From Mytilus trossulus (taxonomy: Eukaryota), in contig NC_086373.1 of assembly GCF_036588685.1 (NCBI RefSeq), positions 42,904,001 to 42,968,000 of the forward strand: 64,000 nucleotides of DNA, in the 5' to 3' direction. A program made the translations under genes and the position numbers. Position 1 is the first letter of the stretch. Each line of letters opens with the position of its first letter. Of this stretch, positions 12,125-61,219 are shown piece by piece. The notes under the pieces were generated by a model. It was not told where the DNA came from. It saw only the letters and a program-made list of their open reading frames with translations, and ran no database searches.

Positions 12125-15100
12125 CTACTGCATGGGTGCAGTCGGTTGTTCATTTGGCTTAGTTTGATAGGCTGCTTGTTCGTACGATGGAGGACTGAAA
12201 GCAGTATTAGAATATCCCGCCATAGGGGGTTGCTGTGGTGGCTGAACGGTTGGATAAGTTGGCTGACCGGTTGGGTAAGTTGGTTGACCGGCTGGGTAAG
12301 TTGGCTGACCGACTGGGTAAGTAGGATATGTGTACTGTGGTTGATATCCCGGCTGTTGTGGATAGTATGGGGCACTGTAGCCTTGTTGTTGTTGTTGTTG
12401 TTGAGCTGTAAATCAAGCAAGAAAATAATACACTGAATTTTAAAATACTATTGAAAGTCATCGGCATAAATGGATTGTACTTATGTAGCAGTCTTTCTTT
12501 TTTCGCGTACTTTATATTAAGCTGATGTTCTCATTAATTATACGTTTTCAGTTTACATATAAGTGAAGCCTTTTGAGTCTCCTTTGGGTGTCATTTGAGC
12601 TTGTAATATTTCAACGTTCCTCTTACAATTTATTAATTAGAACATGTTTTCAAAATATTTAATGAAGCAAGTTGAAACTGCATACATTTGCATATTGACG
12701 TATTCTCTATATCGACTTTATCTTTTGTAGACTATATATGTCTCCTTTCGAGTTTTATTTTTTATACCGTTGCATGGTAGAATAAAAGTAATGTGATCTG
12801 AATCTGATGGCACATAGTTAACTAGACATCAAATACTTGTACCGAATTTGTTAAGAGGATTTCATAATAAATACTACATGACCATTGCTAAATGTGTGTG
12901 GTCGTAAAATTTAAAGTATACTTATTCCTTATTAGTTAATATTTGTGACTTGGATGGAGAGTTGTCTGATTGGCACTCATATCACATCTTTTTATATCTA
13001 TTTTCAAATAAACTTACATGTAGTCACTGTAGACACTGCTTGGTTATTTACAATTGTTGACCCCGCGTAAGCTTGACGTCTATTACAGTATCTACACAAG
13101 CAAACTATGACCACAATACATATTATGAGGCTGATTCCCCCTCCGACCGCTGATCCAGCTACTCGTGTGGAGCTCCTGCAATATTGTTCACATTTATCTA
13201 ATGTTCCTCCTATTTTTAACTTGTTATATTAACAGAGATAGGGTTCATCCCTCTCCCCCTTTTTCCCATTTTGTTTTACTTGAAAAAAGGGAAATCAGAA
13301 TTCAAAGGTGTCATAACCTACTTGGATTTGAATTATAAAAAAATAAAATAAAAAATAGTTCTATACACGAACTATACAATTGCCCTCTGCTTATAATTTA
13401 TAAGAAAAATATAGAGTATAGAAATTATGAAGAAAGTATACTGTTCTTCGTCGGCATTTTCTTTAATCAATCAGAAAATTTTATTTGTTGAGCTCGATCC
13501 GGCAATACAGTTGACTTTATTTTTTTCGTATGCATGGTAACGAAAAATTCCCTTAAATAGAACTGTATCATCTGCATACATAAGAAAATATAAATAGAAA
13601 AAATAAAAAAAGAAGATGTGGTATGATTGCCAATGAGACAACTATCCACAAAAGACCAAAATGACACAAACATTAACAATTATAGGTCACCGTACGGCCT
13701 TCACCAATGAGCAGAGCCCATACCGCATATAGTCAGCTATAAAAGGCCCCGATAAGACAATGTAAAACAATTCAAGCGAGAAAACTAACGGCCTTATTTA
13801 TGTAAAAAAATGAACGAAAAACAAATATGTAACACATAAACAAACGACAACCACTGAATTACAGGCTCCTGACTTGGGTCAGGCACATACATAAATAATG
13901 TGGCGGGGTTAAACTTGTTAGCGGGATCCCAACCCTCCCCCTAACCTAGGACAGTGGTATAACAGTACAACATAAGAACGAACTATAAAAACAGTTGAAA
14001 AAGACTTAACACATCAGATAGACAAAAAATAAAAGTGAACGTGGCCGGGTACTTATACATCCCGACACAAAAAGACACAATGAACAGATCTGAGAGTACT
14101 TGCAGTTATCTGACAGCTAGTTCAAAGCCTTTAACAACTAATAACAAAATCATGCCTCTAAGACTAAGCAATTAATCCGTACACATCCAACATACAATGG
14201 ATTTAGTGTAAAGACGTCATAAACAGCCAGAGAAAAAACATGACCTTGTGCAATGCCAAGTTACAGGTATCGGCAGATTGTACATCCATGAAAATGTATA
14301 TGTATATAACATACTAGTAATATTTAGTTAGCTTTTAATCTACTTATAACAAAGTCAATATGTATACCAATAAAAACAACATTCAATGATCTTATCACAA
14401 TGTTAAATAGGTAACCTTTAAGAATAAGTTTATTTAAAGGAGCGACAAGTTTACATGGATCATTTCTAAATTTCCGGGCACGGTTAACAACATTTCCGTA
14501 AAAATGAGGATGTTCTATCCCGTTTGAAATAAGTTTTCAACAGATACAACCAAACTTCAAAACCAAATCTTTATATCTATGGAAACATTTAGTAATTTAT
14601 GGTAACGATATCCCTGGTTTAATAATTTACTAGTAATGGAAAATTAACAATAAGGAACGAAAAAATCGTCTCTTTTGTGGAAAATTTTAGTGTGTAGTTT
14701 CCCGTTTAAAACCGAAATATCTAAATCCTGGAAAGGACAGTTTTTCCGAATACATTTGATTTATTTAAAGTAAGTTCCTTGGAGTAAATTTCAGCAGTAT
14801 GTTGAGAAAATTCTTGATTATTTAAGGAAAAATATCATCAAGATAACGGTAAGTGTTGTTGAATTTAACAATTAAATGCAATTTCGACGGGTCTTTACTG
14901 AGTTTAGTCATACACTGTGATTCGTAACAGTACAAACACAAGTCTGCTATTAAAGGGTCACAATTAGTGCCCATGGGGATACCTACAACCTGTCGATAAA
15001 CTTTGTTGCCGAAAAGTACGTAAATATTATCAAGGAAAACATTAACAGCCTTAATCATCTCATCACACCTCCAGTAAGTATATCTTGCAAATTTACCTTT

Positions 15101-18100
15101 CTCATTAGAGAAGAAGGCTTTAAATGAGTTGCAGCAAATATATCTACATTCAGCTTTACCAAACGACCATTTAATTAAATAGGAACACTTTTGTTTAATA
15201 AGATACTGTGGAAGTGTAGTGTAAAGAGTAGAAAAATCAAAACTTTTAACAGAATCAAAAGGACCATCAAAAGCCCGCAATTTATCTAAAACATCCAAAG
15301 AATTTTGTACACTCCAAAAATGGTTTATACCACTATGTTCATATATTTTATTACAATAATTTATGATAAACTCTTTAATAGTAGTTAATGAACTAGTTAA
15401 GAGCACTGACAGATTAGTTGTAGAACACTTACTAGAGGCCGAGATGAAACGATATTTAAATGTTTTTTTGTGTAGTTTAGGTAGCAAATACATAGTAGGG
15501 ACCTTCAAATGTTCAGAAGAAGCCTTAAGCTTTGATGTGGTTGTGATATGCTTGTTTACTATATGACTCACTGTGGAGCAGATGGACTTAAATGTAGATG
15601 AATTTAAAATTTCATTCTTAAGAACGTCCGTGTAGTATTTACGTCATACCACAACCACATTGTTGGCTGCGTAGATCATATTTAGCTCATATGACCGACA
15701 ACCTTGACTTATGAATTAATTTCTAAAGTGATTTTAAAATTATATACAAAGATTATAAACTTGAGGCTCTTAAAAGCCTGTGTCGCTCACCTTGGTGTAT
15801 GTGCACATTAAACAAAGGAAACAGATGTATTTATGACAAAATTGTGTTTTGGTGATGGTGATTTGTTTGTAGATTATACTTTACTGATCATTCTTGCTAC
15901 TTACAATTTTCTCTATCTGTAATAAACTTGGCCCTTTAGTTATAGAGGAAAATATTTTGTAAAAACTTACCAAAATTTACCAAATTTATGAAAATTGTTA
16001 AAAATTTACTAAAAAGGGCAATAACTCATTAAGGGGTCAACTGACCATCTTGGTCATGTTGACCTTTTTGCAGTTCTTTATTTGCTGAACATTCTTGCTG
16101 TTTACAGTTTATCTCTATCTATAATAGTACTCAAGATAATAATCAAAAACAGATAAATTTCTTTAAAAATTACCAATTGGGGGCAGCAACCCAACAACCA
16201 GTTGTCCAATTCATCTGAAAATTTCAGGGCAGATAGATATTTACTAAATAAACAAGTTTACCCCTTGTTTAATTTGCTATAAATGCTTTGGTTTCAGAGT
16301 TATAAGCCAAAATCTACATTTTACTACTATGTTCTATTTTTAGCTATGGCGGCCATCTTGGTTGGTTTGCCGGGTCATCGCACACATTTTTTTTAACTAG
16401 ATACCCTTATAATGGTCGTAGCTAAGTTTGGTTAAATTTGGTCAAGTTGTTTCAGAGGAGAAGATTTTTGTAAAAGATTACAAAATTTACGAAAAATTGG
16501 TAAAAAATGGCTATTAAGGGCAATAACTCCTTAAGAGGTCAACTGACCATTTTGATCATGCTGACTTATTTGTAGATCTTATTTTGCTGAACATTATTGC
16601 TGTTTACAGTTTATCTCTAACTATAATAATTTCAAGAAAATAAGCGAAAACGGACAAAATTTCCTTAAAATTACCAATGCATGGTCAGCAACCCAACAAC
16701 GGATTGTCCGATTCATCTGAAAATGTCAGGGCAGATAGAGCTTGACCTGATAACAATTTTACGCATTGTCAGATTTGTTCTAAATGCTTTGGTTTTTGAG
16801 TTATAAGCCAAAAACTGCATTTCCCCCCTATGTTCTATTTTTAGCTGTGGCAGCCATCTTGATTGGTTGGCCGGGTCACGCCACACATTTTTTAAACTAG
16901 TTACCCTAATGATGATTGTGGCCAAGTTTGGTTTAATTTGGCTCAGTAGTTTCAGAGGAGATGATTTTTGTAAAAGCTAACGACGGACGAAGACGACGAC
17001 GACGGACATCGACGACGACGGACGACGGACGCCAATTGATGAGAAAAGGAGATAATGATTCTCCTTGCACCAATCCATCATTTCTTTGGAAGAAATTTTA
17101 GAAATGTCCTTCAAGTTTCACACAACATATAATTTGGGCATACATAGATTCAATAACTGGTTTTTATTTTACAGTTAATAAGTTTCCACTTATACCGCAT
17201 CTGATTAAACTTAACCACATTTGAAATGGGATACACTATCAAATGCATTTTTATAATCTATGAAACAGCAATAAAATCGTTTTCTAATACGCATAGACTT
17301 AGCAATTAGACAATGGAGTGCGAAGATTGCATCGGTTGTTTAATCATAACCTGGTGTAAATCCAAACTGTGAATCGGTTACTTCTTTTGCTTTTTGTTTC
17401 GCTCTTATTGGTGAGCCTGGTGTAAATAATTGATGTAAAAAGTTTCCACACATGGTTTACGAGATAAATACCACGATAGTTGCCAGGGTCGTCTACTGCT
17501 CCTTATTTGTAAACTGGTATTATTGTGCCAGGATTTTTTATTTTGTTGGTTTACGGATCCGCCGACCAGATATTTCCGATTTTGGTAAAAAAAAAAAAAT
17601 GTAGTTTCGTGTTTTTTTTATTTCCGCCGACCCTATAAAATGCATTAGCCATTAAATAAAAAAAATAAATATCGGCTTTATTAAATTTTACCTTCGAACT
17701 GTGTTATTTTCAAAACCTGTCGTTTTGTTTTGTTCTAAAAAAAAGATACAATCTAAATCTAGCCAATCGCTGTTAAGATGAGTTGTATTTTCCGACAATA
17801 GTTTTACGAAACGAAACTTATGTTAATGGTCTGTTACAGTAAGATCGTTTTAATTTTTTTGTCACCATTCCGTAAGATATATAGTTTGACACATTTTATT
17901 ACGCAGTTGTTTACAATGTATGTCATCGTTATAGACGAAACAGATCCTTCTAAACGAGAACGACAGCTAGTAAAGATTACGGAAGTGCCATCCGTACTAT
18001 AGACAGCAGTCCTAATTATCAGTCAAAAGATTAGTATAAGAAAGTTGAAGAAAAACTGAAAGAGATAGAAGTCTATGAACCAGTTAGTATGTTTGATTTA

Positions 18101-21100
18101 GAGCCAGAAGACAGATATGATAGACGAAAGTGGATAACAGACATGAAGTTGACCTTTCCTGTTTCAATTTACACCTATCAACATGGAAACTATATGGGTA
18201 ATCTGAATTTTCTTTGGCGGATACCCGAAGATGAAAATCTTAGAAATGATATGAAACAGTTATCTGCAGTTGAAAAACTCAGAAAAGAAATTCCTATTTA
18301 TTCCTCAAGACAGGTAAGGAAAACATTTATTGACAGGTACACCAGAACAGGACTTAAACCAGCTGTTTTACGGGAGATGTTCAGATTCTTGACAAATGAT
18401 GATACAGCCCCAGAATCTTCCTTACAAGAGAATGTCGACATCAGAGTCATAGTAAGCATAATAGATGCTGACGATCCAGATCTTTTATATGATCTAAGAA
18501 AAAATAATGGTTATCCAAAATGTGGAGATTTGGAGCCTTTTTGGAAAGAGCTGAAATCCTTTCTGAATGAAAAGACAGGTGTACATGAAAGACGCGGAGC
18601 CGACCATGAGTACATGCATTGTGCTATATCCCTATCCGATTTACGTAACCAGATAGCATCATGCTTGACAAACATAGCCCGCATTCCAAGTTTGTCTACA
18701 ATAAGGTACAATTTTTGGCCACCAAGTCCAACTCACAACAATGCAGCAAATTATACTGGGAGGTTTAAGGTCAAATTTGCAGTACAACAAAGACTTCTGC
18801 ATGGCCAACATGAAGACAAATGCTTTGCGACACTTCAATACAGTTTATTTAAAGAAATGGTTGTTAGATGGAAAGGACATGCAAGATTTATTTCCTTAGA
18901 TGATAAAGCCATTGTACCAGTTGGAGAACCTGCTCAGCCATTATCTACTGGAGTGAGACCTCACAACAGATCTTTGACACTTGGGGTTGATCATTAGTTG
19001 CACTCTATCATGATTTTCATGTGTGTGGAATTGTTCCATCTGTGCTTTTTTCTGTTTATATTCCTGATGACAGACAGTTTCTACGAGGGGCCAGTATTTG
19101 TAACTTTAAAAGATAAAATCTTTCAGCCTTCAACAGCTATACGTCATGCTGTTGAATCAGTTGACATACTTCGTAGTCTGACAGGGGACATTAATCTTGA
19201 TGTACACAGATGGCGTTCCAGATCACAGGTCTACATTTTGGTCAGTGCAAAAAGCCTGTATACTGATATTTATTTCTTTAGACTTGGACATGCTGGTCAC
19301 TGCACGCACAGCACCAATGGCTAGCTATGCCAATCCAGCAGAGAGAATAATGAATCTCGCTTTGCAAAATGTAGCCATGGAGAGACCAGACATGATAGAA
19401 GACTATTGAAGAATGATGAAGAGAAACGGCTCAATGACCAAAGTTAGGAACATAGACGAGAAAGAACCAGATTTCAAAATTGCACTATTACAGTCAACAA
19501 AACATGTTATATCAAAACTTGATGACAGATTCAGTATACTGAAGTGGAAGGACAGGAATGTAAACATGCACGAAAGTGCAAATATTGATGATATAGAAGA
19601 CATTGGTCATTTGCTGAGTATTCTTGACCACCTGGATGGAGGCCTCTCAATTGAAAAACAGAAAACAAAAAAAGGATATAGAGAAGTTTAGATGCCTGAA
19701 GAATTTTATAAATCTGCACACCAGAGAAAGACAATACACATACCAAATAAAGAAGTGTGGAAACTGTGCCTATTGCACAATAAATCCCCCTCGTCTATCC
19801 CAAGAGTTGTTTGATAATCTACACTGGCTGCCAGATCCTGTCCCAGTTCAAAAAGATAGTGATGAATACAAGTCTTTTGATGATGTCTATGGAGTAGATT
19901 GTTATCAACGGTACCAGGATTATAAATTAGTACGCCAGACGTGCGTTTCGTCTACACAAGACGCATCAGAGTAGAAACAGATGATTCTGGGAGATCCAGC
20001 TTAGTCAGCAAAAACGTCCCTACATCAGCTGATCTTTGTCACAAAGGAGGTTTTGTAGCAGCAAGAGCGAGATCATTTATTATTTGCAGAGATTGTGGGA
20101 AGAGGAGAGTAGTGTACTCTGGCAAGCGTCTAACTATAGACCAGATGAGATAAATAGAGCGGATACAAGAAGAGTTCATATTTACTTGTGGGGCCCCATT
20201 ATTTCCAGATGGAGTCATGAAAGAGAGTGTTTATGTCAGAGAAGGTCAATCGTGTAACAGTGAATGGAAACTACCTATTATTCAGATGTAATTGGATTGA
20301 ATACACCAGTTTGTTTCTTCTGTGGTGATACTGAGGTGATCACAAACCAAGAAATACAGAACCTCAAACAAGAATATGGAATCGTTCGACCTATATGCGA
20401 CACATACTTCCAGGGTGGAAAGAGACCAGCAATGACGAATGCACTAAAAACCAAACAAGAAAATGAGATAAACATACAATTTTATTTCAAAAACAGTCTT
20501 TAATAAGCACACAAGAAGTGTAAAAACATTGACATTGCATTAATAAAACTGTCAAAGACATTTACATTTGACAATATTAAAATATTGTTTTAAAACATTG
20601 TTTGATGATTTTTTGGGGTCTCCCATGATGGTGGTATACAGAAATCAGTTAATATATATCAGAAGGGTACTATAGTCATTTACCTTAAAAATCAGTAATT
20701 TTTGGGCCTTTTTTTTGACCGACCGACCCGACCTTTTCAGATGAAAAATCCGTAAACCAACAAATTGAAAAAAACATGCCTAATGCTGTTAACCCATATT
20801 TCTGGAAACTCGCCATGACTCAATATACGGTTAAACAGTTTGCAAAATACTGGTTTGATGAAGTTTATGCTCGTTAATATAAAGTTGTTATAATAACTAA
20901 AGGACCAAAAGTTAAAAAAAAATTGTATATGACGTGCTTTTTCTGCTTTGTACAAAAACCAATGCTCGAAATACAATAAAATTTGTTTGCACATGCGAAC
21001 GTTGACTACTGCAGAAAAATGAATTTTACCAATATGGCATGCATTGAATGTATTTTATTTTAGTGCCTGTCTGCCTAAGAACCAGGCAGTGGTGAAAACA

Positions 21101-39399: not shown

Positions 39400-42300
39400 T
39401 TGCCAAAAGCGGGATTAAGGATTAAAAACATGCTTCGTATTGTTTTCGATTCCGGTAAAATTCCAGAAGCATGGTTAGTTGGTAACATTATTCCTTTTTA
39501 TAAAAATAAAGGTGATACAAAAAAAACAGAAAATTATAGACCTATCACAATTCTTAGCTGCATGGGAAAGCTATTTACATCAGTTCTGAATTCAAGACTA
39601 TCCACTTTTTTGGAAACTTACTTATTGTTAAATGAAAATCAATCAGGATTTAGAAGAGGCTACTCAACCACAGATAGTATTTTTGTCCTACATATTCTTT
39701 CGAACTATTGAAGATGCGAAAGAAAAAACTTTTTTGTGCTTTTATAGACTTTGCAAAAGCCTTTGACACAGTTTGGCGATCTGGTTTATGGCAAAAACTT
39801 TTGGAGAATTTTATCAGTGGAAAAATGTATGATACCATTGTAAATATGTATAGTAACATAAAATCTCGAATTTTTTATGGTAGTGTATTTTCAGAGTATT
39901 TTCCTTGTAATGTCGGTGTACGTCAAGGCGAAAGCCTCTCACCTTTATTATTTTCTCTATATATTAATGATCTTGAACATTTTTTAAAAGAACAAGATGT
40001 AGAAGGGTTAAAAACAGTATCCGATGATATAGAAATTGAGCTAGACTACTATTTAAGATTGTTTCTGATTATGTATGCAGATGACACAGCTCTTTTGGCA
40101 GAGTCAAAAGATGACCTACAGAAGCAGCTTGACTCTTTGTATAACTATTGTGAACTTTGGAAATTGAAGGTTAATGTAAATAAAAGTAAAATTGTAGTTT
40201 TTTCAAAAGGTAGACCATTATCAAATATAGAATTTAAATATAATAATACTGTTTTAGAAATTGTGAATGAGTTTACGTACCTTGGTGTTATTTTTTCTAG
40301 AACAGGAAGTTTTTCTAAGGCAAAAAAGGCACAAACAGAAAAAGCCACACACGCTATGTACGATGTTATCCGCAAAGGTCGAAAGCATAATTTATCTATA
40401 GAATGTCAAATCGATCTTTTCGATAAAATTGTCAAGCCTATTTTATTGTATGGAAGTGAAGTTTGGGGAGTGGGCAATAATTCTATTATTGAAAGGGTCC
40501 ACCTTAAATTCTGTAAAATTTTGTTAAATGTAAAGAAGTCAACGCCAGATTTCATGATTTATGGAGAACTTGGGAGATATCCTTTGGAAATTGATATCAA
40601 ATTGCGGATTTTAAATTACTGGTCGAAACTTATGTGTGAAAAGCAAGAAAAACTTCCTGTTATTTTGTATAAATACAGTGCGTGAACTGGTGTCAAAATA
40701 TTATCGCCCCTGTAAACAGTGGGCTCTTCTGACTAGAGGTAATCGGTAAAGAATAGCGGAAAATTGTGTACATTGTTTACGAGCTTGAAATGAGCTAACA
40801 CAGACGAACTGAGACGTGTCAACGTAATGTGAATATGATAATGCACCAGGTAAATTATTAATTGTTAAGTTTATCACATCATCGTATCTTCATATGATAG
40901 GTAAATAAGTGAATTTTCGATTTTAAGTGTCGTCAGGGTTCAAACCTGGAATCATGCCAACCTTTCATTATTTTTTTTAAATACTAACCTATAGTCGGAA
41001 CATCTTGATTTTCTCCCAATTTGTAAAGTTAATTATGCTGCTTGACATATATTTTTTTTGGGAAAAAAAATTGATATGCAGTCAAATGTGGCAGTTTTTA
41101 ATATTTGTTGCTATGTGAAATAAAGGGAAGTAAATTAAAGTAAAAGAAGGCGCGCTTTTTCAAATAGTAAACAATTTAATTCAGATGCATAGTATTTTGT
41201 CAAATGATAAAGAATATCGTAGAAACTTGCTAGAAATTCATCTAATTTATAAAAGATATACAACATGACATACTGAAATCTGAAAAGGGGTTAAACCGCC
41301 ATACCTTGAACAAATTCAGTTAAAAAAGGGGGGTAAAATGCTACGAAATTTAGATTTTATTTATTTTTTGTCGACAGCCAAAAGATGATTTGACACTAAT
41401 TTGACATTTCATTGTAAAGTATAATTGGCTTTTTTTGGGGTCTCTGTTTATTGTGGTCTGATGTTTTCAGGTTCTCTTTGGATTGCCAAATAATATTATA
41501 ATCATCTAATTGAATGTTCAAATTATTTTGCGATGGTGTGTATGGAAGGAAGACTGTCATAAAACCCAACAGTTCCGGATGGCCCTTTAAATAATTGCTT
41601 AACATCAATAGCGATGTAAGATTCAAGTGTTTGATTTAGCACAAGTTTAGCCGGGTTTTCCTTGTAATTGTGGCAGAAAAACCACTAGACAGTGTCATGC
41701 ATTGAAAGGATATCAAACGGATATTTTATGGAATGATTCTCATACATATAAAATCATTCTTTCATGCAGCAATTTTTAATTTCCAATATAAACTCTGAAA
41801 AGACAAGAGCATAGAAATGTATACCAATGAGAAACATTCTTTGTGAATAAAATCATTCCAAAACTTAAATGTGTCATTAGTGTTGCATTATTTATCAGTA
41901 GAGATAATCAGATTCCAGTAAGATTGTCCAACTGATGGTTTTTGTTTTTAATCATTTTTGTAAATCTTAGTTCTTTTGACAATCCGGGCTGTGCATGTTG
42001 CCCGGCTGCCCCTTTCAGTGTGAGACAATATTTTGTTTATAATAAACAAAATCACTGATTCAAGACTGGAGCGGACCCCTTTTAGGCAGTTAGTGCGAAT
42101 CCTTTAGGTTTAAACCATTACATGCAATACGGGGGAGGGGGAAGATTTTTTTTTTACAGAGTCAAACATTTTTCCTAATAATAATACATTGAGATTTAAT
42201 ATATACTTTGTTATATGTAGTGTGTATATTAAAGTATTGCCAACAAAATTCATCAAATTTGGGATCATAATATTGTTTAAGAAAAACCCTTAATCCCTGT

Positions 42301-43890
42301 ACATCATAAAAGTTCATAATCTTCTGTAACACACGTGCATGGTTAATTCGGATCACATATTTTCTATTCCGATGTTACAAGAATTCGAAGGTTCATATCA
42401 TTTACAATATCATTCAAAAAAATTCTGGGATTTTTTTTACTATCAACGTTAAACCTCGAAGTTACATTGTAGTAAAATAAAATCCAATAAAAACGTTGAA
42501 TGTAAATGATATGCACCTTTAAATCTTATATTGTAGGACTCATGTTGTTCAAACATAATGTGTTGATCAATTATGTTATGATGATTTTGATAAACTTCAC
42601 ATTAGGTAATCTTTCACGTATATTGATTACATTATATCGAGTTGTCCCAACGATATACTTGTCGGTGTGCTCGATCATACGAATTTACCGACATTCATAT
42701 AGACAAAATGACACAACTTTGAAAAATTCTTGTGACGAAACTACATTTCGGAACACGTTAAAAATTGGATACCCAGAAAGCTACATTATTAAGGTTTGAT
42801 ATATATTTTTTTCAAAAAAAAAGAAAAATATGCAGTCAAATGTGGCAGTTTTTTACACCCCCCTATGTTGAACAATAGGTTGTTCAATTAACAGCATGTT
42901 TGGCAATTAAAAAATCATATATTAACACATTTAGCTTTAACATATACTTTATTTATAGTGGTTGTATAAAAGTTATATAATGGTTTTGTGTTTTAAGAGA
43001 TATTCATCCCTATGCATATCGGGTTTTATGCGTAAATTGTCTCTCCTGTTTTTAGACCTTTTCTATCTCTTTCATAAGAAGAGTGACTTTTCTATTGTTC
43101 TAGTGTCACTGGAAATCCCACTGAATATGCATATAAAAAGTATGGGATGAGTATCCCATGGCTTAATAATATAAAATCTGTTCTTGATAGCTGTGGACTG
43201 TCATATGTTTGGAATGCACAGTACTTTGTTAGTAAAACATGGTTATATCATAAGGTTAAAGTTAGTGTTGTGGACCAATTCAAACAAAATTGGCACTCTA
43301 TCTTATTAGAATCGCCAAAAGCAATTAATTATCGTCTTTTCAAAGATAATGCTGAAAGAGAAAACTATTTTAAGATCCTAGATGATAAAAATATTATTAC
43401 TTTTTGTAGATTCAGGATACTCAGTCATAAACTTCCTATTAAAACTGGAAGGTGGAAAATGTACCTAGAGAAAATCGAAATTGTAAACTATGTAATTCAG
43501 GAGATATTGGGGATGAATTCCACTATATTTTTAAATGTTCGAATTTTAATCATGATAGAGAAAAAAAATTGAAACCATATTATCTAAATAGACCAAACAT
43601 ATTGAAATTTCATGATTTGATGAATACTAGAAACATCAGTATGTTGAATCATTTATGCAAATTTATCAGACTGATTAATAAACAGCTGGACTCTTAGGGG
43701 AAACATTGTTTAATATTTTTTTATATAATATTTTAGACATGCAAAATGTGTTTTGTATATTACATGTAACTGGAAATATTTTTCCAGTTGAAGATCATAC
43801 ATTTGTATTAATTCTGACTATACATTGTATGTTATATTATAAATGTTTATATTATCTCTGTACCATGGATTTTTGGTTTATGAGAATAAA
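39400..43890 (+). mobile_element. 5'-truncated CR1/L2/Jockey-group LINE RT remnant, split by a DNA transposon at 40676-43123
   Basis: Motifs NYRPITILS, NQSGFR, FIDFAKAFD, GVRQGESLSP and MYADD (39400-40675), continuing as SIPWL... and CKLC..GDEFHYIFKC (43124-43697). AATAAA near 43885. Several frameshifts. Confidence 0.85.
40676..43123. mobile_element. Non-autonomous DNA transposon (CAGTG...CACTG termini, 4-bp AATA TSD)
   Basis: AATA at 40672-40675 and 43124-43127 flanks imperfect TIRs. Removing the insert restores the LINE frame ...ILYKYAYKKYGMSIPW. Confidence 0.8.
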
Positions 43891-46339: not shown

Positions 46340-49300
46340 GGTGGAATTACTGAAATCACCGCCAATGTCCTCAGCCGAGGCCATCCATCATCATGTGTTT
46401 CGACCCCTAGCTCGGTACACTCTCAGGATGGGGGGTCCACAGTGGTGATCAATCACTGCGCATTGGTGGTGGGTTTCCAGCTACTACTATCTCTCTTCAT
46501 CCATATCCAGCAAGATGCTTTCTCTGCTGTTTGGCCCAGTTTCTTTATTGCTGCTCTTCTATTCTGGCCAGTCACTCCAACTGCAGAAAACATTCTCCAC
46601 ACTGACTGTGCAGGGAAGCCTCTGCAGCCAACCTCAATAGGAAAGTTCCATGTCTGCCATCCTTTATCTCTGCACTCTGCCAACAGTCCATCATATTTTG
46701 CCCTCTTTCTTTCATTTGCTTCGCCACATCTCTCCTCCCAGGGAACTGTCAACTCTATGATTACTACTTTTTTACTGCTTGTAGACCAAAGTACCATGTC
46801 TGGTCTTAGGTTAGTTGGTACAATATCAGGAAATTGCATCTTCTTTCCTAGATCAACTTCTAACTGCCAATCCTTCGCCTGATTAAGCATTCCTGATATG
46901 TTCTTTTTACTTTTCTGGCCTACTTCACCCTCCTTCACAAACTGGATCTTGATAGGTTTGTCTCTAATGTGTTTAGCATCCTTTCTCTGTTTCTCTATAA
47001 CTTCAGCAAGTTCCCGGAGTACTTGGTTGTGTCGCCATGTATATCTCCCCTGTGTAAGAGCGATATTGCACCCTGAAAGAACATGTTGTAGAGTTCCTCT
47101 TTTTCCGCACAAGGGACAGTCTGGTGTTTCTGATAGTTTCCACCTGTACAGATTTGAAGGTGTCGGTAACACATCATACACTGATCTAAGAAGGAACTGC
47201 AGTTGGTATTGCGGATAACGCCATATATCTGACCATGTAAGGGATAGTTGTTCCAAATCCCATCTCGACCAAGCACCTTGGCTCCCTAATTCTACTGTCT
47301 TTGCTTGTCTGTTTTCTTCTTCTCTAGATTTTATCTCTCTTTGGACAAGACTTCGTCTTTCTTGTGTGTTAGCGTTCTTCCAGTAGCAACTTTTTGATGT
47401 ACCAAGGCCCTGTCGTCCTACTGCCACTGTTCCAACAATATCTTTATGCCTCAATCTACTCTCTGCCTCTGTAACTGCTTTTGATGCTGACCATTTTCGT
47501 CCTGTTCTTACTTGGACGCCTGCTGTTCTTACTTTCTCATCTCTAGATTCTTTCAGTGTCATCACAAGGCGACTTTTGCTAATTTTAAATTCTTCCACTA
47601 GAGATGTAAATGGTAGCTGCAACTTTGCAGTCCTGCTGTATAGTCCTACAGTTGTAAAACTTGGAGGGACACCTAAACATTTCCTTAGATGTCTGTTGAT
47701 GGTTCTTTCAAGCTTCTCAACTGTTGTCAACGTTATTTCGTACAGCATAAGTGGCCATGATATCCTTGGCAGGAGTCCATGTTGGTATATCCATGCCTTT
47801 AATTTCCCTGGTAGACCTGTCTTGTCGATGTTCCTCATTCCCTCTGAAACCTGTTGTTCTATTCTCTTGATATTGTTTTTGTCACTTAGAGAGTCATCAT
47901 ACCATTTTCCTAAGCACTTGATGGGATTGTCTATTATTGAAGGAATGACTTCTCCTTGCACCTTTAGTTCGACTTGGTGTGTTCTCTTCCCTTTCCTTAT
48001 AATTAGAGCTCTAGACTTCTTTGGCTTGAAAGACATCCTTGCCCATGTTACTGTCTCTTCCAATGCCTTTAATACCCATCTAGCCTGGACATGGGTATCT
48101 GTAGTGATGGTTAAGTCGTCCATGAACCCTCTATTTGGTGGTTGCCTGATGTCAGTTGATGTTTTCGGGCCTCTAGTTTCTCTCTCACCAGATTTAATAA
48201 TCATATTCATTCCCATGACAAACAAGATAACTGAGATGGTACATCCAGTAACTATTCCTTTTTGTAGTTTCTGCCATGTTGTTGTAAATGTGCTTGTTGT
48301 AAATCGCAGCTCAATCCCACTGAGATAACTTCTTATCACTTTCTTAAAGTGGTCGGGAATATGGTAATGATCTAGTGATTGTTGTATCAGCATGTGAGGA
48401 ACAGTACCATAGGCATTAGCCAAATCTAGCCATACTACTGTCAGATCTTTCTTGTTCACTTTGGCCTCTTGAATAAGTTGTGAAATGATGCTTGTATGTT
48501 CAATACATCCTGAGAATCCTGGTATTCCGCCCTTCTGTACTGAAGTGTCTACATAGTTGTTATCTGTCACATATGATGTTATCCTTCTAGCCATAATAGA
48601 GAAGAAGATCTTTCCTTCTACATTTAGGAGGGAAATTGTCCGAAATTGTGTGATGTCCTCCGATTTTTCTTCTTTTGGAATAAAACACCCCTCTGCTTTC
48701 TGCCAACATGATGGTATCTTCCCTTTCCTCCAAACTACTTTCAGTAGCCTCCACAGGTGTTTCAAAACTTTTGGGCACTTCTTATATACCTTGTACGGTA
48801 TGCCATTTGGTCCTGGTGATGATGCTGACCTGGCTTTCTTCACTACATCTGACACTTCTTTCCATGATGGTTCCTTAGTGTTCATTGGTATTTCTGGTTC
48901 TTGTACATTTTCTATCCTATCGCAGTTACCTAGATGTTCCCACTGCCTTTCGTCGCTGTGTGTTCTGATAGATGTTTTTCCACTTCCTCTTTCGTGCTTT
49001 TTACTGAACCCGCCTTTGTTCCGTCCAGTGTTGCTTTGGTAAACTTGTAGGGGTTGGCAACAAACATTGCTCTCTTCTTCCCTCTTTCTCTCCTTGCTTT
49101 TCTGATTCTTTCTGCTCTTTGTAGATTGTTTCTTCTTTCCCTCAGTATTGATCTTAACTCATTCAATCCTTCTTTTTCCTCCTCATTTGCTCTTTTATAC
49201 TGCTTTGTGACATCATTAATTTCGGTTCTGAGTGTTTGTATTTCTTGTTGACGTCTGTTATGTTTCATGTTACCCTGAGTGCCTTCTCTGGTTTTGATGT

Positions 49301-49850
49301 TACTAACTCCAAATCTATCTTGTCCTACTGCATACACAAGTGTTGACAATGCTGATATCTTCCTTTGTACGTCTCCTGTAAGTGTGTTATCCAAGATCTT
49401 GTCTAGGTCTTCATCAAAGATCTCCCATCTCCTATCATCTGTTGGTGGCCATTGTATCTTTTCTTTCCTGCTGTCTGCTGAAGGTGTTCTCGATGTTCTC
49501 TGCTGGTTTTGATTCCCTTGCTCCTCCTCAATGTTGATCTGAGTAGCTTCATTAGGTAAGAGGTCCTCAGCACTGTGGTGTGCTTCCTGGCTGTGGTCCT
49601 CCGTCGTCTCATCAGTGTTAACTGTGCGTTCCCTTTGCTGCTTCCCAGATCCACACTTAGTTCTTGCCTGGTGTATCTTTGCAAACCTTCCCACAATGAC
49701 ACTTGGTTTCTGCCGTTGTTCCAGTCAAAGTCCGTTGGATTAGCCGAGTTGTTACCGTTTTGTCCTGCTCAATGGGTCTCTCATCCTCCCCCCCTCTCGG
49801 AAGACCCTGGGGGTATTGCTCTTTATTCTGTTCTGTAGCTATATGTACCA
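46340..49850 (-). mobile_element. HERO-like (R2 group) non-LTR retrotransposon with RT, CCHC knuckle and restriction-like endonuclease; frameshifted
   Basis: ORF 46453-48885 has RT motifs WLDLANAYG, GIVTGCTIS and GFMDDL, the knuckle CPLCG..GTLQHVLSGC, and the RLE motifs RHN and LRPDMV...IIELTVPWE...ERKRAKY. Upstream ORFs (48930-49694, 49657-49860) carry a broken N-terminal zinc finger, KCHCGKVCK / KIHQARTKC. Ends are approximate. Confidence 0.88.
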
Positions 49851-53997: not shown

Positions 53998-54297
53998 TGT
54001 TTTTTTGCCATGACATTTTCTAAATTTATGAGTTTGAATATACCTTTGTTAGCCTATAACTCGCTTTTCTGTTTAAAGTAAAGATATCAACAAAAGTCAT
54101 GCAATTTGGTATGACTATTTCTGTATTCTTACTAAACCTTTTCCAACAGAAAAATGTGGGTATGTTCAGTTTACTATTTTTGTGTTTGATGCTGATAAAC
54201 GTGTTATGTATTAGTATCATTTGATATTGAGTGCACCTTGTATTCGAGACAAACAGCTGTGCCAAATATTTGATAGAAAACATTTGTATAAGTATAG

Positions 54298-54902
54298 ATT
54301 ATCACATATTTGTTATGAATATCGTAGGTTTTGCATATGCAATAACCTCCAAATTGCCCGGGGCAAAAAAGACATATCCATATTGTGCCCTGTTCCTAAA
54401 GACGTGACGTCATTGCATCCTCAACAACACGTTTGTGATTATTTGCATAAGATTTTACCTTTTATGTATCATAAAATTGTTATAATTTACGTTTTTTCTC
54501 TTTTCTGCAGAACTTAAATATGTGATAAAAAGATTATAACATGCCCTTTTCCATATTGGCCCGGGTATCATCCCGAGACTCCCATATCGGCATCGAGGCT
54601 TTAGCCGAGGGCCGATATGGGTCGAGGGATGATACCCGGGCCAATATGGAAAAGACATTTTATAATCTTTTTATCACATATTTAAGTTCTGCAGAAAAGA
54701 GAAAAAAACGTAAATTATATCAATTTTATGATACATAAAAGGTAAAATATTAAGCAAATTATAACAAACGTGTTGTTAAGGATGCAATGACGTCACATCA
54801 TTAGGAACAGGGCACAATATGGATATGTCTTTTTTGCCCCGGGCAATTTTGAGGTTATTGCATATGCAAAACCTAATGTATTCATAACAAATATGTGATA
54901 AT
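54298..54902. repeat. ~605-bp near-perfect palindrome (foldback element)
   Basis: Arms ATTATCACATATTTGTTATGAATA... and ...TATTCATAACAAATATGTGATAAT, with a short spacer centred near 54600. Confidence 0.9.
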
Positions 54903-55310
54903 AAGTAAATATAAACATGTTTACCAGAATTATGGAATAATAGAAAAATAAAACCAATAATCAGTTCATTTTTTTATTTCTCTGTTCCTCTTATTCTTAC
55001 ATCTAGTAGTTTGATATCCATTTTAAAAACACAATAACATCATACTAAATTACAATGCATTATAAATATTTTTTAGTTATAAACATGTAGCAAATGCGCT
55101 AACATATTTTGGCGCTTAAAACTTAGTTTACTTTTTTTTTTAAACTCGACAATAACTTTAATTCAAAAGATGAGCTATGTCCAGTTCTATTGTCCAGCGT
55201 TCATAAATATGATGATTAAAGAAAAAAAATGAACAAGACAAAAAAGATTCATGTAAAAAGCTAAAAGAAAAAATGAAAGAAATCGGGGGTAAAAATCAAT
55301 CTAACACAAG

Positions 55311-58300
55311 TTACATTGGATCTGGTATAACTTCGTTTACTTCATTTGTAAACTTCTGGTCTCCCAGGTAAATATTGTCCTCACATTGTCTGAATTTTCT
55401 TGTTTCTCTCCAGACACACTCTTCGCCATTATGAAAACATATACCATCGTCATGGTAACAATCAAACATAATTCCAAATTCCCACTCGCACGTGTTGTTG
55501 CTGTCCAGTTGTCCACACTGTCCTTCCCGGCAGAAAGAAAACTATTAAAACATAAACTGGTCAATTAAAAGATGAACATACAAAAAATATATGAATAAAT
55601 TTTAATGTCCATTCAATAAATTGCCAATCAAATTCAGCAAAAAAGTGATGATACGAGCTCTGTTTAATTTCCTTAAAAATAATTTATTAATAGTAAAACA
55701 CACTGATGTTTCTGTTTTGTTTTAAAACCAATTAAATTTGTAAGATTTGAAGTGTATAAAGTGTTCGTTTTATTTAGCCTTTTCTGGATGCCTTTAGTAA
55801 GGAAATATATTTATTATTGCCAGGAGATATGGTTTACGCCATTGCCAGGTAGTTAGCAACATAGATATAGGAAGATGTGGTATAACTGCCAAGAAAACAA
55901 CTCTCCATCTAATAATTTATAAAAGTAAACCATTACATGCACGGCCTTCAACACCGAGCTTTGGCTCACACCGAACAGCAAACTATAAAGGACCAAAAAA
56001 ATACCCTTGACGGACGACAATTACATGAAGTTCTTAAAGCTATGTCGCTGGGCTACCAAATTTCGCAGATACATTTTAAACATCATTTTCCAATGATTAA
56101 ATTCGAAATAAATCAAGTTTAAAAATTGTCTTAAATTTTGTCATATTGGTGCCTTCCATTTTGAAGGCTGGAAGCTGACCAGCTATTCCCTGTTTTTCAT
56201 TGGATACTGACTGTAGTTCTAGAGTTTGATTGCTAATGGTAATATATTTTACAGTACTGACAAAAATATATGAATGTGAGGACCAGACCGAAAATTTGTC
56301 ATGAATTTTACAGACAATATAGACTTGCATTGTACATTTGAACCTCAGCCTCTTTGGACTACCTTGATCAATAGAGACTTACCTCACACTGACATCCAGA
56401 TTCATATTTAAATCTAAGACCATTTTTCTGTGCCTTTGTCAGATTGTGATATGGTTTTACCCATTCACAGATAGATGTGTATAGATTATCGTCCATTATA
56501 GTTCCTGTGGGAAATAAATAAAGAAAGAATAACCAACGATGCTCTTATAGTATTTCAATATTTTGAGATATAATAAAAAAAAAAAAAACATTTAACATGA
56601 CAATCAAAATGCAAAAATGTAACACGTTTTCTGCTGCAGTTCTAAAACAAGGTGTAAAATTTTAAATTATTATGGAAATTTCCAATAGATTACAGTTGGA
56701 TTGCATAAATATCCTACAAATATTTTTCCTGTAGCAGGGACAGGCTAAACAAATAACAACACCCCAGACACAAATCTTGAAGAATCACTTGCCTGTTATG
56801 ACGTAGTTTACATCCATTTCTAACTCTCCAACCCCGCTACCAGATGTTGAAGAAATGATCATTGTCTTAGTTGCATTTTCATACTCTGGTCCTGCCTAAA
56901 AGTTGAAAATAGTTCGATAAAGGCAAACGTGACATGTATATTAACATATATCGTTACTGATTTGCAAGGTAGAGGCTGGCTATATATTCGAAACACGCAG
57001 GCCGATATTAGTTACACTAAATAGAATCATATTCAAAACAGTGTGGTCCTGGCCATTGATTGACGACCTAAATTATCCCATTGACTGTGACAGATTAGGT
57101 GAACGTTTGTCTGTAACGACCATTGCTCTCTTCTTACTTATTATAGAATTTAAACTGTGGGGTCACCAAAGGTTCTTAACGCCTTTAATAATAAAATAAT
57201 TCGAAAAATTATTCAGGAATAACCTTTATGTTTTGATTTATATTATTGATATAAATCAACACATCGTATTATTCCGGATTCGTTTTTCGAATTGATTTAT
57301 TAAGGTGTTGAGAACCTTTGGTGACCCCACAGATTCAGTGTCTTTAAAAAGTACATAGTGAGCAGTGATTGTTACCGACAAACGTTCACCTAATCTGTCC
57401 CAGTCAATGGGAGAATTAGGTCGTCAATCAATGGCCAGGACCACACTGTTTTGAATATGATTCTATCATACATCATAACAGGCAATGTTGGTCCTCAATG
57501 CTCTTTAACTTCGTACTTTATATGGATTTTTTTATCTTTTTTAAATTCGAGCGTCACTGATGAGTCTTTTGTGGACAAAACGCGCGTCTGGCGTAAATAC
57601 AAAATTTATCCTGGTATCTATAATGAGTGTATTTACATTTTGTAATGTTCTAAACCTCTTTTGCAGGTTCTCGTTTTTCAAGAAGGGAATAAAATGGGAA
57701 GAAATTGTTCATTTGCCAATATTTCTATATTTGACCATATTTGTCTGTATTCAATGAGAAGTCTCATTAGATAAAACTTATAACTTTCTATCTTGATATC
57801 TTCGACAATTGAAATCAAAGTACGGTATGAAGCCCCTTTAACATCATTACGACTTCTAGAACAGACATGTTTATATTTAAACTGGTGAAAACTCATGACA
57901 CAAATCAAGGTATTGTACTTTACTTTTGTGTGCCTGCTAGGGACCCCCAAAGGTATAGCTATTTTAAAAACAATAAAGTATAAAAAATTAAATAGACATA
58001 AGGAACCATACATAGAATACAAAAACATAATTACGATTATCTTATCCTGCGTTTGCTGGCACCTCAGTTTCGTAGTTATTTGTAAATTTATCAACAGGGA
58101 ATTTGGAACAAATAATTTGTTATTACGAATCAGGTCTTACCTTGAAAACCTTTTTGATGTTCACAATATAATGAACCGCCATAGGGAAGCCCTCTTTACT
58201 ATAGATAACATCTTTGTCCAAGATTCCGGCCAAAACGACTGTTTAAAAAGAACATGAAGAATTGAACAAATAATTTAAAAGGTTACAGGAAAATGTACCA

Positions 58301-59922
58301 CTTACGCATTAAACGTAACCCTCTTAGCTGTTTCAGCGTTGACATATATTAAGATGTAAGCTAATGTATATTCGCATAGTAGTTGAGCAGATTGAATTAA
58401 AAGACTAGTGTAAATGATAACGGCTAGTGTAAATGATGCCTTTATTGACCATTGTAAACTATAAGGGCTGGTGTAAATGATGCCTTCAAGTCTAGTGTTA
58501 ATGAGAAAGACTTGTGTAAAGAATGTCTTTAAAGACTAGTGTAAACAATAATAGCTAGTGGAAATGATACCTTCAAAGTCTAGTGTAAACGATAACGACT
58601 AGTGTAAACGATAACGGCTTGTGTAAATGACCCCTTTCTAAGGCTAGTGTAACCGATAACGGCTAGTGTATTAAAATGGTACCTTCAAAGACTGGCATAA
58701 ACGATAACGGCTAGTGTATACATACACTAGTGAAAATGGCAAAGGCTAGTTTTATATTATGCCTTTAAAGATTTACGACTAGTGTAAACGAGGCATTTTT
58801 GTATCTCACAGTTTCAAGTTTTCTTAAAGACACTCATCATAGTAAGAAACCAATGCTCTCTTAGTCATGATGTTATTAATATACAAAAGTGTCGCTTAGA
58901 CATGCTTTATCGTCAAACAATGAATCCACCACTTCCTATATAAACAAGTGTCTTCCGTCTAATTGTTCGAATGACTTAATCCAATTCAAACAAGTGTGAG
59001 GAGTTTAACGAGAATTTGAAGTATGCCTATGTTTGTTTTTATGAAGTCTTAAACTCGTACGATAAGTTCAAGTATGTATGTTTTTAAATAATCTTACGCA
59101 CAAAAAAAACTCAAAAAAAAATGTAGAAACCTTATTTGACGCTTGTCGGTATGCCACTTTTACATTGCTACAGCTATAAAGCAACCAACAATAACTAGAA
59201 TAGCAAATGTACGTCATTTTCAAAATTGCTTGTAGTAGAAACAACAAATCTGTAGCATTACTACATGTGTACCAGAAATTGATAAAATATAAATTGTTTA
59301 AACTTTCACTCAACATACAAAAAGGTTTAATCTGTAACCAAGTTTACTGAAACACTCTCCCTTCCTTTTTTTTTTATTGTTGATAAATATGTTTATCAAA
59401 CTACATAAAAAAGAGTTTTAATCAAATACAACAATTTTTCGAATTAAAATTGCAAAGCCACACTTTTTTGACAAATTTAAGCAAAATTGTGATTTTATAA
59501 CAAAATTTGTTTGACATATGTTCCTACGTTGTGATGGTGTAGTATCATATTCAAAAGTAAAATAACTAAACGTCCAAGATATTGAAGAAAGACTTTTTTA
59601 AACTATAGCATTATTCATACAATATAACACGAACTAAAGCACAACAACCACAACTGCACAACCCCCTCCGACAAGAAAACTTGCGCACAAAAAATGTACA
59701 AACAATGACAAAACAACAACAAACAACGCATGATCTTATACATGTAGCTTGATTTGATACAGACACAAATTGTGTTAAACTTTATAACTTAATATATGGC
59801 ATTGTCTTACCAAAGTCCGATTCACAATACTGTTGTTGTGGATGGCGGAGTTCACACATACAATCTCCATACTGAACAGCATGAAAAAGCAAAGCTGCCA
59901 CCAAAATGTTTACAGCTGCCAT
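55311..59922 (-). CDS. TIMP: Tissue inhibitor of metalloproteinases (TIMP)-family protein, 221 aa, atypical
   Basis: Exons 59811-59922, 58141-58238, 56793-56895, 56383-56504 and 55311-55541 (666 nt). Signal peptide followed by the TIMP signature CMCELRHPQQQYCESDFVV, then Y.V.IKKVFK, NYVITG, SICEWVKPYHNLTKAQKNGLRFKYESGCQC and a Cys-rich C-domain ending ECVW. Intron 3 has a GC donor. Confidence 0.92.
57022..57465. mobile_element. Second copy of the 10691-11135 MITE, opposite orientation, in TIMP intron 2
   Basis: Near-identical reverse complement of 10691-11135. Confidence 0.85.
57551..57594 (+). ncRNA. Hammerhead ribozyme copy with G12A change (probably inactive)
   Basis: GCGTCA-CTGATGA-GTC(TTTTGTG)GAC-AAAA-CGCGCG-TC-TGGCGT. 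Confidence 0.6.
58400..58790. repeat. Degenerate minisatellite with core CTAGTGTAAA(T/C)GA in TIMP intron 1
   Basis: More than a dozen copies of the core spaced roughly 20-35 bp apart. Confidence 0.8.
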
Positions 59923-61219
59923 TTTCTGTGAAATTGAAAAAAAGAATACATTTTCCATAATGTATAACTGGAAATAAACTAGGAATGTAAAAATGATGTA
60001 AGTGGACTACAGCAAATTGTGTCATTTTGTGTTTTAAAAAAAAAATTCTGTCCGAAATGCTGTTTGAATATGTAAAATTGGTCGCTGACTTACAAACTTA
60101 AAACAATCGCCCCATTTAACAAAACTAATAACATTTGAAAAATCGTTTTCATCCGATGATATCATTCATAAAAAAAATATATTAAAAAAATATATACAAG
60201 AACAGAACAAGAAAGGACATTTATAAAGTGTTACATTCTATCCATTTTTCATCAGCCTATGTTAAATCTAAAAAAATACAATTTCAATAATAATACACTG
60301 ACCTTATTTCAGATGTGATGAACAATATACATGTGATTCGATGATGAAGATATGAATTATTTAATATACAAATAATAATGAGTTTCGGATGATGTAGGTG
60401 AGAGCCTTCTTCCGTTCTCATTGGTATTGATGTCAGGAGTGTTGACAAATACTCAAGACTCAATCATGTGTAATCATCTCCTTATATTTGACTGTGCCTA
60501 AAAATAAGAAATATAAGTGGGAGGCCTATGTTTTTCTCATTTCTATTCCAAATACACAATAAATTTATATAAGATAATGTAAGAGTACACTTGAGGATAT
60601 TGTACTTTAAGTTATATTTTACACAGACACCTTCTTTTTTTTTAAATACACACCCAAAGCAACACGTACGTAATTTGTACGTAACAATGAACACCTACAT
60701 TGACGCCCATCCTGCAATGTTTTCATAAGAAACTCGTCGTAGTTGTCAACCATTCTTCTCCGTTTCATAAGTCTCACTGTGTCTAAACCACACCGGCAAA
60801 ATTTGTTCGGACTCGATGGTATCTAACATCCGGCACAATGACGGAACATTAATAGACAGAAGAAAGCTAGGTATCTCTTTATTTTATTATTTTTTTTATG
60901 ATATCGAAGAATATATATACATATACAACTATTTACTATTGTTATATGCAACATTTTCTACAACTGTTCTATATTAACGAAGAAATAAGTAAAAATGCAT
61001 GTCAAAATGACGAATTGAGTGAACCTTGCCTCGAAATTGTTTAATTTCTGATTTGGAACTTCCGGTGCAATGGCGGCGCCCACGTTTTTTAACATGCTAG
61101 AGCAAATTTAATTTAATTGTGGCCTGAAACCCTCAATATAAAGCTACAAAGTAACAGAATTCAACAAAACAAAAGTATGAATATAGAAATTTAACAAAAA
61201 TTTAAATTGAACGTTTAAA

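Follow-up and report, generated by a model that had tools for sequence, protein, structure and literature searches.

The TIMP gene and its transcript

The 64,000-nucleotide stretch of Mytilus trossulus DNA analysed here (the window; NC_086373.1, positions 42,904,001 to 42,968,000) carries on its minus strand a gene for a tissue inhibitor of metalloproteinases (TIMP), which a sequence-only reading had described as having lost the disulfide between canonical Cys1 and Cys70. We rebuilt the gene model from splice signals and obtained five minus-strand exons that join in phase into 221 codons in the AT-rich window (GC 28-42%). Coding exon 1 (59811-59922), delimited by splice signals, encodes the predicted signal peptide, Cys21-Met-Cys23, the HPQ motif and Cys33, which corresponds to canonical Cys13. 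The TGT codon of Cys21, the apparent Cys1, lies at 59860-59862 and, going by the predicted cleavage, most likely specifies the -1 residue of the signal peptide. Exon 2 (58141-58238) covers strands A and B with the AB loop, and exon 3 (56793-56895) the C-D connector, in which Cys70 is absent; both rest on splice signals and an RNA contig, and both are free of Cys. They are followed by intron 3 (56505-56792, 288 nt), an intron of the GC-AG type whose GC donor is matched by RNA contig joints in runs X21, X22 and X23, and by exon 4 (56383-56504; RNA contig and Pfam PF00965), which contributes canonical Cys99, Cys124 and Cys127. The coding part of exon 5 (55311-55541) encodes the C-domain with seven Cys, including an extra pair (173 and 198), up to the stop codon. 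The predicted extent of the 3' untranslated region is 54978-55310, where hexamers at 55162 and 54978 are candidate polyadenylation signals.

The rebuilt protein is letter-for-letter identical to the RefSeq model of M. trossulus, XP_063444471.1 (P0009). Its precursor holds the odd number of 13 Cys that the sequence-only reading had counted (positions 21, 23, 33, 117, 142, 144, 149, 154, 163, 173, 180, 187 and 198), and Asp20 adjoins Cys21 on the N-terminal side. Apart from the reactive-site pair, the remaining ten canonical Cys and the HPQ motif are all present. Exon 4 alone passes the Pfam TIMP profile (PF00965) with 39.2 bits (E 8e-10; cut-off 23.1), while exon 1 alone scores 18.5 bits, under the same cut-off; the near-identical M. 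edulis protein P0001 carries PF00965 and matches solved TIMPs at E 1e-13. The protein is acidic, with an isoelectric point (pI) of 4.7 and 32 Asp/Glu against 18 Lys/Arg, and has three N-glycosylation sequons, at 77, 125 and 160.

Read contigs from 4 of 24 sequencing runs were aligned to 55000-58330; of the runs discussed here, X23 is recorded as RNA, and X21 and X22 were guessed to be RNA. One 648-nt contig of X23 (record 25) spans exons 2-5 with no mismatch across exon 3 and terminates in letters of exon 1; its joints skip 841, 288 and 1245 nt, which are the lengths of predicted introns 4, 3 and 2. The 288-nt GC-AG joint recurs in X21 and X22, RNA contigs of X22 as well as X23 end loosely in the 3' letters of exon 1, and the untranslated stretch 55000-55310 is covered by RNA-type contigs in X21. 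No second TIMP was found in the window by tblastn and motif scans, and Rfam gave no match. Upstream of the model, a minus-strand stretch at about 60300-60421 encodes the N-terminal extension seen in P0001, P0007, P0011, P0013 and P0015, which are models from M. edulis and M. galloprovincialis. This stretch is probably a 5' exon; the M. trossulus model lacks it and starts at 59922. Close to the C-terminus, at about 55326-55334 (minus strand), a three-residue duplication occurs in M. trossulus only and is absent from the other Mytilus models.

Loss of Cys70 in Mytilus

The gene is expressed and the loss of Cys70 is real, not an assembly error. The 90%-identity cluster around the protein has 17 members, 15 of them listed, from M. 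trossulus, M. edulis, M. galloprovincialis, M. coruscus and M. californianus. Exon 3 is covered by 14 of the 15 listed Mytilus members and Cys70 is missing in all 14, although several of these are alternative models of one locus, so that the fair count is five species. The exact M. coruscus protein was found on 17 contigs, with Logan among the sources. Scans of introns 2-3 with tblastn and motif searches gave no alternative Cys-Gly exon, the contig-variant rows listed show no variant at the Ser90 codon, and the three exon variants that were checked are all synonymous. Five species share the loss, an RNA contig splices exon 3 unchanged, and the scans revealed no other exon to take its place. 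Errors of assembly, rare alleles and alternative exons are thus excluded as explanations. The absence of Cys from exon 3, as read initially from the sequence, is thereby borne out by the rebuilt model, the Mytilus orthologues and the RNA contig alike.

The history of the loss may differ from the one that the codon itself invites. The AGC codon of Ser90 (56836-56838) occupies the column of Cys70 in the alignment, and the sequence-only reading had pointed out that AGC is one base from TGC. The codon is as described, but that likeness may be coincidence, because the C-D loop is two residues shorter in Mytilus than in the Cys70-bearing sister proteins and M. coruscus, M. californianus and P0007, one of the M. 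galloprovincialis models, carry Thr in the Ser90 column. A point change from TGC to AGC is consequently unsupported as the history, and the alignment suggests that a plain deletion may have removed the Cys codon. Among proteins with Cys70, the closest relatives are P0016, P0169, P0017 and their cluster mates, which are 56-61% identical and probably come from other mussels. A metagenome scan for the coding DNA of relatives returned only three distant TIMPs (27-29% identity), and a third homologue search added no new close members. The extra C-domain pair, Cys173 and Cys198, is present as the sequence-only reading had stated, but it is not unusual: 109 of the 142 non-Mytilus homologues aligned in the region have it, and it was rejected as a special feature.

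Two forms of the protein occur in M. galloprovincialis, P0007 and P0008 on the one hand and P0010 on the other. Compared with the window protein, P0007 is changed at 15 of 121 places in the N-domain and at 1 of 56 in the C-domain, and its Thr-Gly-Val-Arg loop is common to M. coruscus and M. californianus. The P0007 form may be an old allele or a paralogue.

Phylogeny and joint loss of Cys1 and Cys70

A tree of 48 proteins groups the five Mytilus rows together as a clade (support 95/99) nested within a fully supported clade (100/100), in which the other five rows all keep Cys70. A wider clade (98/92) unites the Mytilus clade with the Pacific oyster TIMP (P0020), a scallop TIMP and a Pinctada TIMP in which both reactive-site Cys are lost. 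At least four separate changes of the label "no Cys70" are needed on this tree. Co-occurrence of the two Cys was assessed in the 150 best of 369 matches together with P0016; from these 151 non-Mytilus rows, 15 that had no leader, were out of register or were fragments were set aside, leaving 136 usable rows. Both Cys1 and Cys70 are present in 130 of them, neither in five, and only Cys1 in one, a gecko model. The five double-loss rows are the Pinctada TIMP, with Ser at both positions, a Nematostella protein, a Desmophyllum protein, a member of a Stylophora cluster and one further record.

Signal peptide junction

The leader of the Mytilus protein is hydrophobic and homologous to those of the sister proteins. 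At the junction (a slash marks the cleavage), the sister proteins read G-D-S/C or G-D-G/C, and P0169 and P0171, with 15 Cys in their precursors, read G-D-C/C-Y-C. The Mytilus junction G-D-C-M-C is one residue shorter behind the conserved G-D, so that Cys21 fills the -1 slot. Judging from this alignment, the deleted residue would be either the old -1 residue or Cys1 itself, with the same outcome either way.

We built an empirical position matrix from the 130 canonical TIMPs with both Cys. Their -1 residue is Ala in 63, Gly in 33, Ser in 19, Thr in 4, Cys in 2 and Gln in 2, followed by seven singletons that include Asp, which means that 121 of 130 carry A, G, S, T or C there and that Asp and Tyr each occur once. 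In leave-one-out tests the matrix recovers the Cys1 site 97 times out of 130, and it also does so for the sister proteins. Applied to the Mytilus precursor, it scores cleavage after Cys21 at 11.3, after Tyr18 at 10.4, after Gly19 at 1.7 and before Cys21 at -3.8. Over 27 settings the site after Cys21 was best in 15, that after Tyr18 in 11 and that after Ala15 in one; over 500 bootstraps the site after Cys21 was best in 317 and the upstream VQY/G site in 183. Cleavage before Cys21 was best in none of either. When training was limited to small -1 residues, GDC/M was best in 8 of 9 settings. Signal peptidase sites generally follow the (-3,-1) rule, and a plain scan with it accepts cleavage after residues 21 and 23 and nowhere else. 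The latter, CMC/E, fits the simple rule and was rejected at a matrix score of -3.0; QYG/D was likewise rejected for its low score. Of the claims made from the sequence, two are favoured by these predictions, namely that Asp at -1 makes a poor cleavage site and that GDC/M, which matches the sister GDC/C, is a better one; QYG/D, also named there as fitting better, is not.

Cleavage after Cys21 would give a mature chain of 200 residues with 12 Cys, compared with 13 if Cys21 stays. On the sequence evidence the balance tips towards Cys21 being the -1 residue of the signal peptide and being removed with it, leaving 12 paired Cys. The rest of the family agrees with this outcome: an orphan Cys1 is rarely kept elsewhere, Cys1 also being gone in 5 of the 6 TIMPs that lack Cys70, which fits removal of Cys21 in Mytilus.

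Fold and sequence variation

An AlphaFold2 model built on a 93-sequence alignment has a mean predicted local distance difference test (pLDDT) score of 90.5. It superposes on human TIMP-2 (1br9) with Z 20.1 and a root-mean-square deviation of 3.1 over 168 aligned residues, and on the NtA domain of agrin with Z 9.2. The modelling that had been suggested as a check therefore gives an intact TIMP fold, and by sequence and modelled fold the protein is a TIMP family member with the NTR/OB-fold N-domain and the disulfide-rich C-domain both preserved.

With protease-facing loops defined from the secondary structure of the model, the five Mytilus sequences vary in 18 of 29 loop columns, in 18 of 92 columns in the rest of the N-domain and in 4 of 56 in the C-domain. 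The corresponding counts in a control group around P0016 and P0169, which comprises few lineages, are 5 of 29, 10 of 92 and 7 of 56. A first version of this test (29 of 49 against 11 of 128 columns) had used wide segments chosen after the alignment had been seen; it was post hoc and was redone. The signal peptide differs at only 0-1 of 21 places within Mytilus. The gene is not decaying.

Other features of the window

Two nested inverted-repeat elements resembling miniature inverted-repeat transposable elements lie at 54278-54922, downstream of the 3' end, and at 57021-57466, in intron 2, where the element is high-copy in the read contigs. A diverged 44-bp tandem array occupies 58387-58791 in intron 1. 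The intronic stretches 55800-56000 and 57480-57640 have very high contig depth in DNA as well as RNA-type runs and are on that account dispersed repeats. On the plus strand, a 676-codon open frame at 61211-63241 matches GDSL/SGNH esterases weakly, just under the cut-off at E 3.6e-07, and part of it resembles a coiled coil; we take the frame to resemble ORF1 of a retrotransposon without long terminal repeats (non-LTR). Open frames that by eye resemble reverse-transcriptase pieces of non-LTR or Penelope-type retroelements lie at 14822-15643 (minus strand), 39678-40685 and 43087-43572 (both plus strand) and 46453-49724 (minus strand), and open frames resembling a broken DNA-transposon gene, also by eye, at 18035-19974 (plus strand).

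Interpretation of the altered reactive site

We favour, with somewhat better than even confidence, a non-inhibitory, fully disulfide-paired, acidic glycoprotein that acts through its C-domain. In all five Mytilus species sampled Cys70 is absent and its loop is two residues shorter, and relative to the Cys70-bearing sister proteins one residue is missing at the signal junction. Signal peptidase would then cut after G-D-C and take Cys21 away, so that the mature chain would start at Met-Cys3 with six bonds, namely Cys3-Cys99, Cys13-Cys124 and four more within the C-domain. Lacking the amino group of a tethered Cys1, the protein would not chelate the zinc of matrix metalloproteinases (MMPs) in the canonical manner. 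In mammalian TIMPs, a Cys1-to-Ser change or a blocked N-terminus is reported to reduce MMP inhibition severely (PMC3003256, PMC5884528, PMC9409782), and agrin NtA, which has the same fold with no Cys1 and one N-terminal bond, is reported to have inhibited none of six MMPs (PMC3439447). By analogy with these mammalian mutants and with agrin NtA, canonical MMP inhibition is unlikely for the Mytilus protein under either of the probable cleavage sites. An extracellular binding or adaptor role would instead be exerted via the near-invariant C-domain, towards matrix, the cell surface or the exosite of a pro-metalloproteinase, while the old MMP-facing loops may be drifting or being redirected; C-domains of TIMPs are described as binding metalloprotease exosites, cell surface or matrix (PMC3679795).

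Several points weigh against this interpretation. The cleavage site is predicted only, from a home-made matrix with the leave-one-out success given above, and the upstream VQY/G site wins in a sizeable share of bootstraps and settings; once the two rows with Cys at -1 are dropped from training, cleavage after Tyr18 becomes best in 8 of 9 settings. The double-loss cases are not all independent, since three of the five share a group in the tree, some of them on long branches. The idea of loop variability came from the same data, columns adjoining indels inflate the loop count, and TIMP surface loops are reported to be variable in general (PMC3679795). N-terminally altered TIMP-3 still inhibits ADAM17 and ADAMTS enzymes (PMC3003256). 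The secreted binding role is likewise predicted.

The sequence-only reading had offered a choice between a repurposed TIMP with 12 paired Cys and one that exposes a free thiol. The first branch is the one that gained support; we regard the second as less likely, though as the main rival. Here cleavage after Tyr18 or Gly19 would leave Cys21 unpaired behind a short N-terminal extension, where it would form intermolecular disulfides, cysteinyl-DOPA (3,4-dihydroxyphenylalanine) links or a metal site; the extended amino terminus would still abolish MMP inhibition. The VQY/G score comes close to that of GDC/M (10.4 versus 11.3), but Tyr at -1 breaks the (-3,-1) rule, is found in a single canonical row and loses to GDC/M when training is limited to small -1 residues. 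Each of the 12 Mytilus models in which exon 1 reads intact retains Cys21, which says little because the whole signal peptide is near-invariant. Pinctada P0021/P0177 lacks Cys1 and Cys70 yet has 13 Cys, and scallop Sbp8-1 offers a reported precedent, as it polymerises via extra Cys and shows no inhibition (PMC5975577). The Mytilus protein is, however, acidic, in contrast to the Lys-rich, basic scallop byssal TIMPs (PMC5975577), and no foot or byssus link was found for it.

A protein that still inhibits metzincins, with shifted specificity, appears less probable again. It would bind ADAM/ADAMTS-type or microbial metalloproteases via a remodelled ridge formed by Met22, or by Cys21 if that stays, together with the rapidly changing loops, and would be compatible with either cleavage site. 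The case has real substance: N-TIMP-3 in extended or T2G form is reported to lose MMP inhibition (Ki 800 to >1000 nM) and to keep inhibition of ADAM17 (34-36 nM) and ADAMTS-5 (1.5-1.7 nM) (PMC3003256), but these mutants retain the Cys1-Cys70 bond that the Mytilus protein lacks, and agrin NtA provides no MMP inhibition as a parallel (PMC3439447). The focus of variation on protease-facing loops, with signal peptide and C-domain fixed, can reflect an arms race; relaxed constraint explains it equally well. The clade also groups with the Pacific oyster TIMP P0020, and an oyster haemocyte TIMP has been linked to wound healing and defence (PMC8382897). It is tempting to speculate further, though the chances are slight, that, as a hidden compensation for the loss of Cys70, deletion of a single residue shifted the orphan Cys into the signal peptide, and that the freed loops came under diversifying selection, giving a fast-evolving, Cys1-independent immune binder. 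Such a protein, again with little probability, would have a new partner, for instance microbial or ADAM-type metalloproteases, behind a fixed signal peptide and C-domain, and its C-X-C precursor would be annotated as an ordinary inhibitor. An artefact or dead gene (a pseudogene, an assembly error, a rare allele, or an exon 3 that goes unused in favour of one with a Cys) is very improbable: the GC donor of intron 3 and the missing signal peptide of M. edulis model P0001 would speak for it, but it is opposed by the loss common to five species, the exact M. coruscus protein on 17 contigs, the unaltered splicing of exon 3 in RNA contigs, the lack of an alternative exon in the introns scanned and the synonymous nature of the three variants checked.

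Relation to known TIMPs and significance

Canonical TIMPs (PF00965; human TIMP-1/2/3 and oyster Q6DMR2, our P0020) share with the Mytilus protein the fold, five coding exons, the HPQ motif, Cys3, Cys13, Cys99 and Cys124, the C-domain Cys and, as predicted for Mytilus, a signal peptide; oyster P0020 also has Met at position 2. Five exons are reported as the norm for molluscan TIMPs (132 of 142), a family that is expanded in pteriomorph bivalves (PMC10755359). Unlike canonical TIMPs, the Mytilus protein lacks Cys70, has a C-D loop that is shortened and an Asp in front of the apparent Cys1, and probably carries no Cys1 once mature; by its sequence, it is not a canonical MMP inhibitor as far as Cys70 is concerned.

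Its nearest parallel among bivalves is the Pinctada TIMP (AGS32052.1 / KAK3103073.1; P0177, P0021), which belongs to the same wider clade and likewise lacks Cys1 and Cys70. It differs in having reached this state by Cys-to-Ser substitutions, with the cleavage register unchanged and an extra N-domain Cys, and its loss is separate on the tree. A nacre TIMP has been knocked down in P. martensii (PMC4660305); if P0177/P0021 is that protein, the MMP-inhibiting role assumed for it in nacre formation is doubtful. The literature connects oyster and pearl-oyster TIMPs with wound healing, with the shell and with the ligament (PMC8382897, PMC4660305, PMC3004377, PMC8194122), and a haemocyte "metalloproteinase inhibitor 3", which could not be tied to the Mytilus TIMP gene, is reported to fall after Vibrio injection (PMC6697025). 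Scallop Sbp8-1 (Chlamys farreri) is a bivalve TIMP that was reported to be non-inhibitory and proposed as a thiol cross-linker (PMC5975577). All 12 canonical Cys are retained in Sbp8-1, where the extra C-terminal pair is proposed to supply the free thiols, and this basic protein is specific to the foot (PMC5975577), whereas the Lys-rich composition of such byssal TIMPs is absent from the Mytilus protein with its pI of 4.7. The Sbp8-1 assay used a thioredoxin fusion (PMC5975577), which, if N-terminal, could itself block inhibition.

Further afield, the Cys1 reactive site has been lost on a TIMP/NTR scaffold in cnidarian and echinoderm TIMP-like proteins (Nematostella P0144, Desmophyllum P0122, the Stylophora cluster of P0147, and tensilins). 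TIMP-like proteins without an N-terminal C-X-C are described in cnidarians (PMC4860685), and loss of this motif is reported to have arisen repeatedly in echinoderms (PMC8467561, PMC4807446). These proteins visibly lack or alter C-X-C, whereas the Mytilus precursor keeps it and would pass a motif check. Agrin NtA shares the TIMP-like OB fold of the Mytilus protein, has one N-terminal disulfide and no Cys1, and reportedly lacks MMP inhibition (PMC3439447), but it is a domain of a large laminin-binding proteoglycan outside the TIMP family. In the mostly open literature covered, with supplements and Mytilus byssus or shell proteomes outside its scope, we found nothing on the loss of Cys70 in the Mytilus gene or on a change of cleavage site that would conceal a missing Cys1. 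Non-inhibitory TIMPs lacking Cys1 are a known, repeatedly evolved class, and the cleavage-shift route to it appears to be undescribed.

The finding is a specialist one inside this known class and not a new kind of system. If the favoured interpretation is true, the C-X-C motif can mislead as a mark of a functional TIMP, and Cys70 and the cleavage register need checking too. The Mytilus protein would then also be a recent case of the repeated loss of the reactive site in invertebrate TIMPs, with close sister proteins that keep the full site. Such a natural pair would make it testable what part non-inhibitory members play in the expanded TIMP family of bivalves, and whether natural TIMPs bind proteases independently of Cys1.

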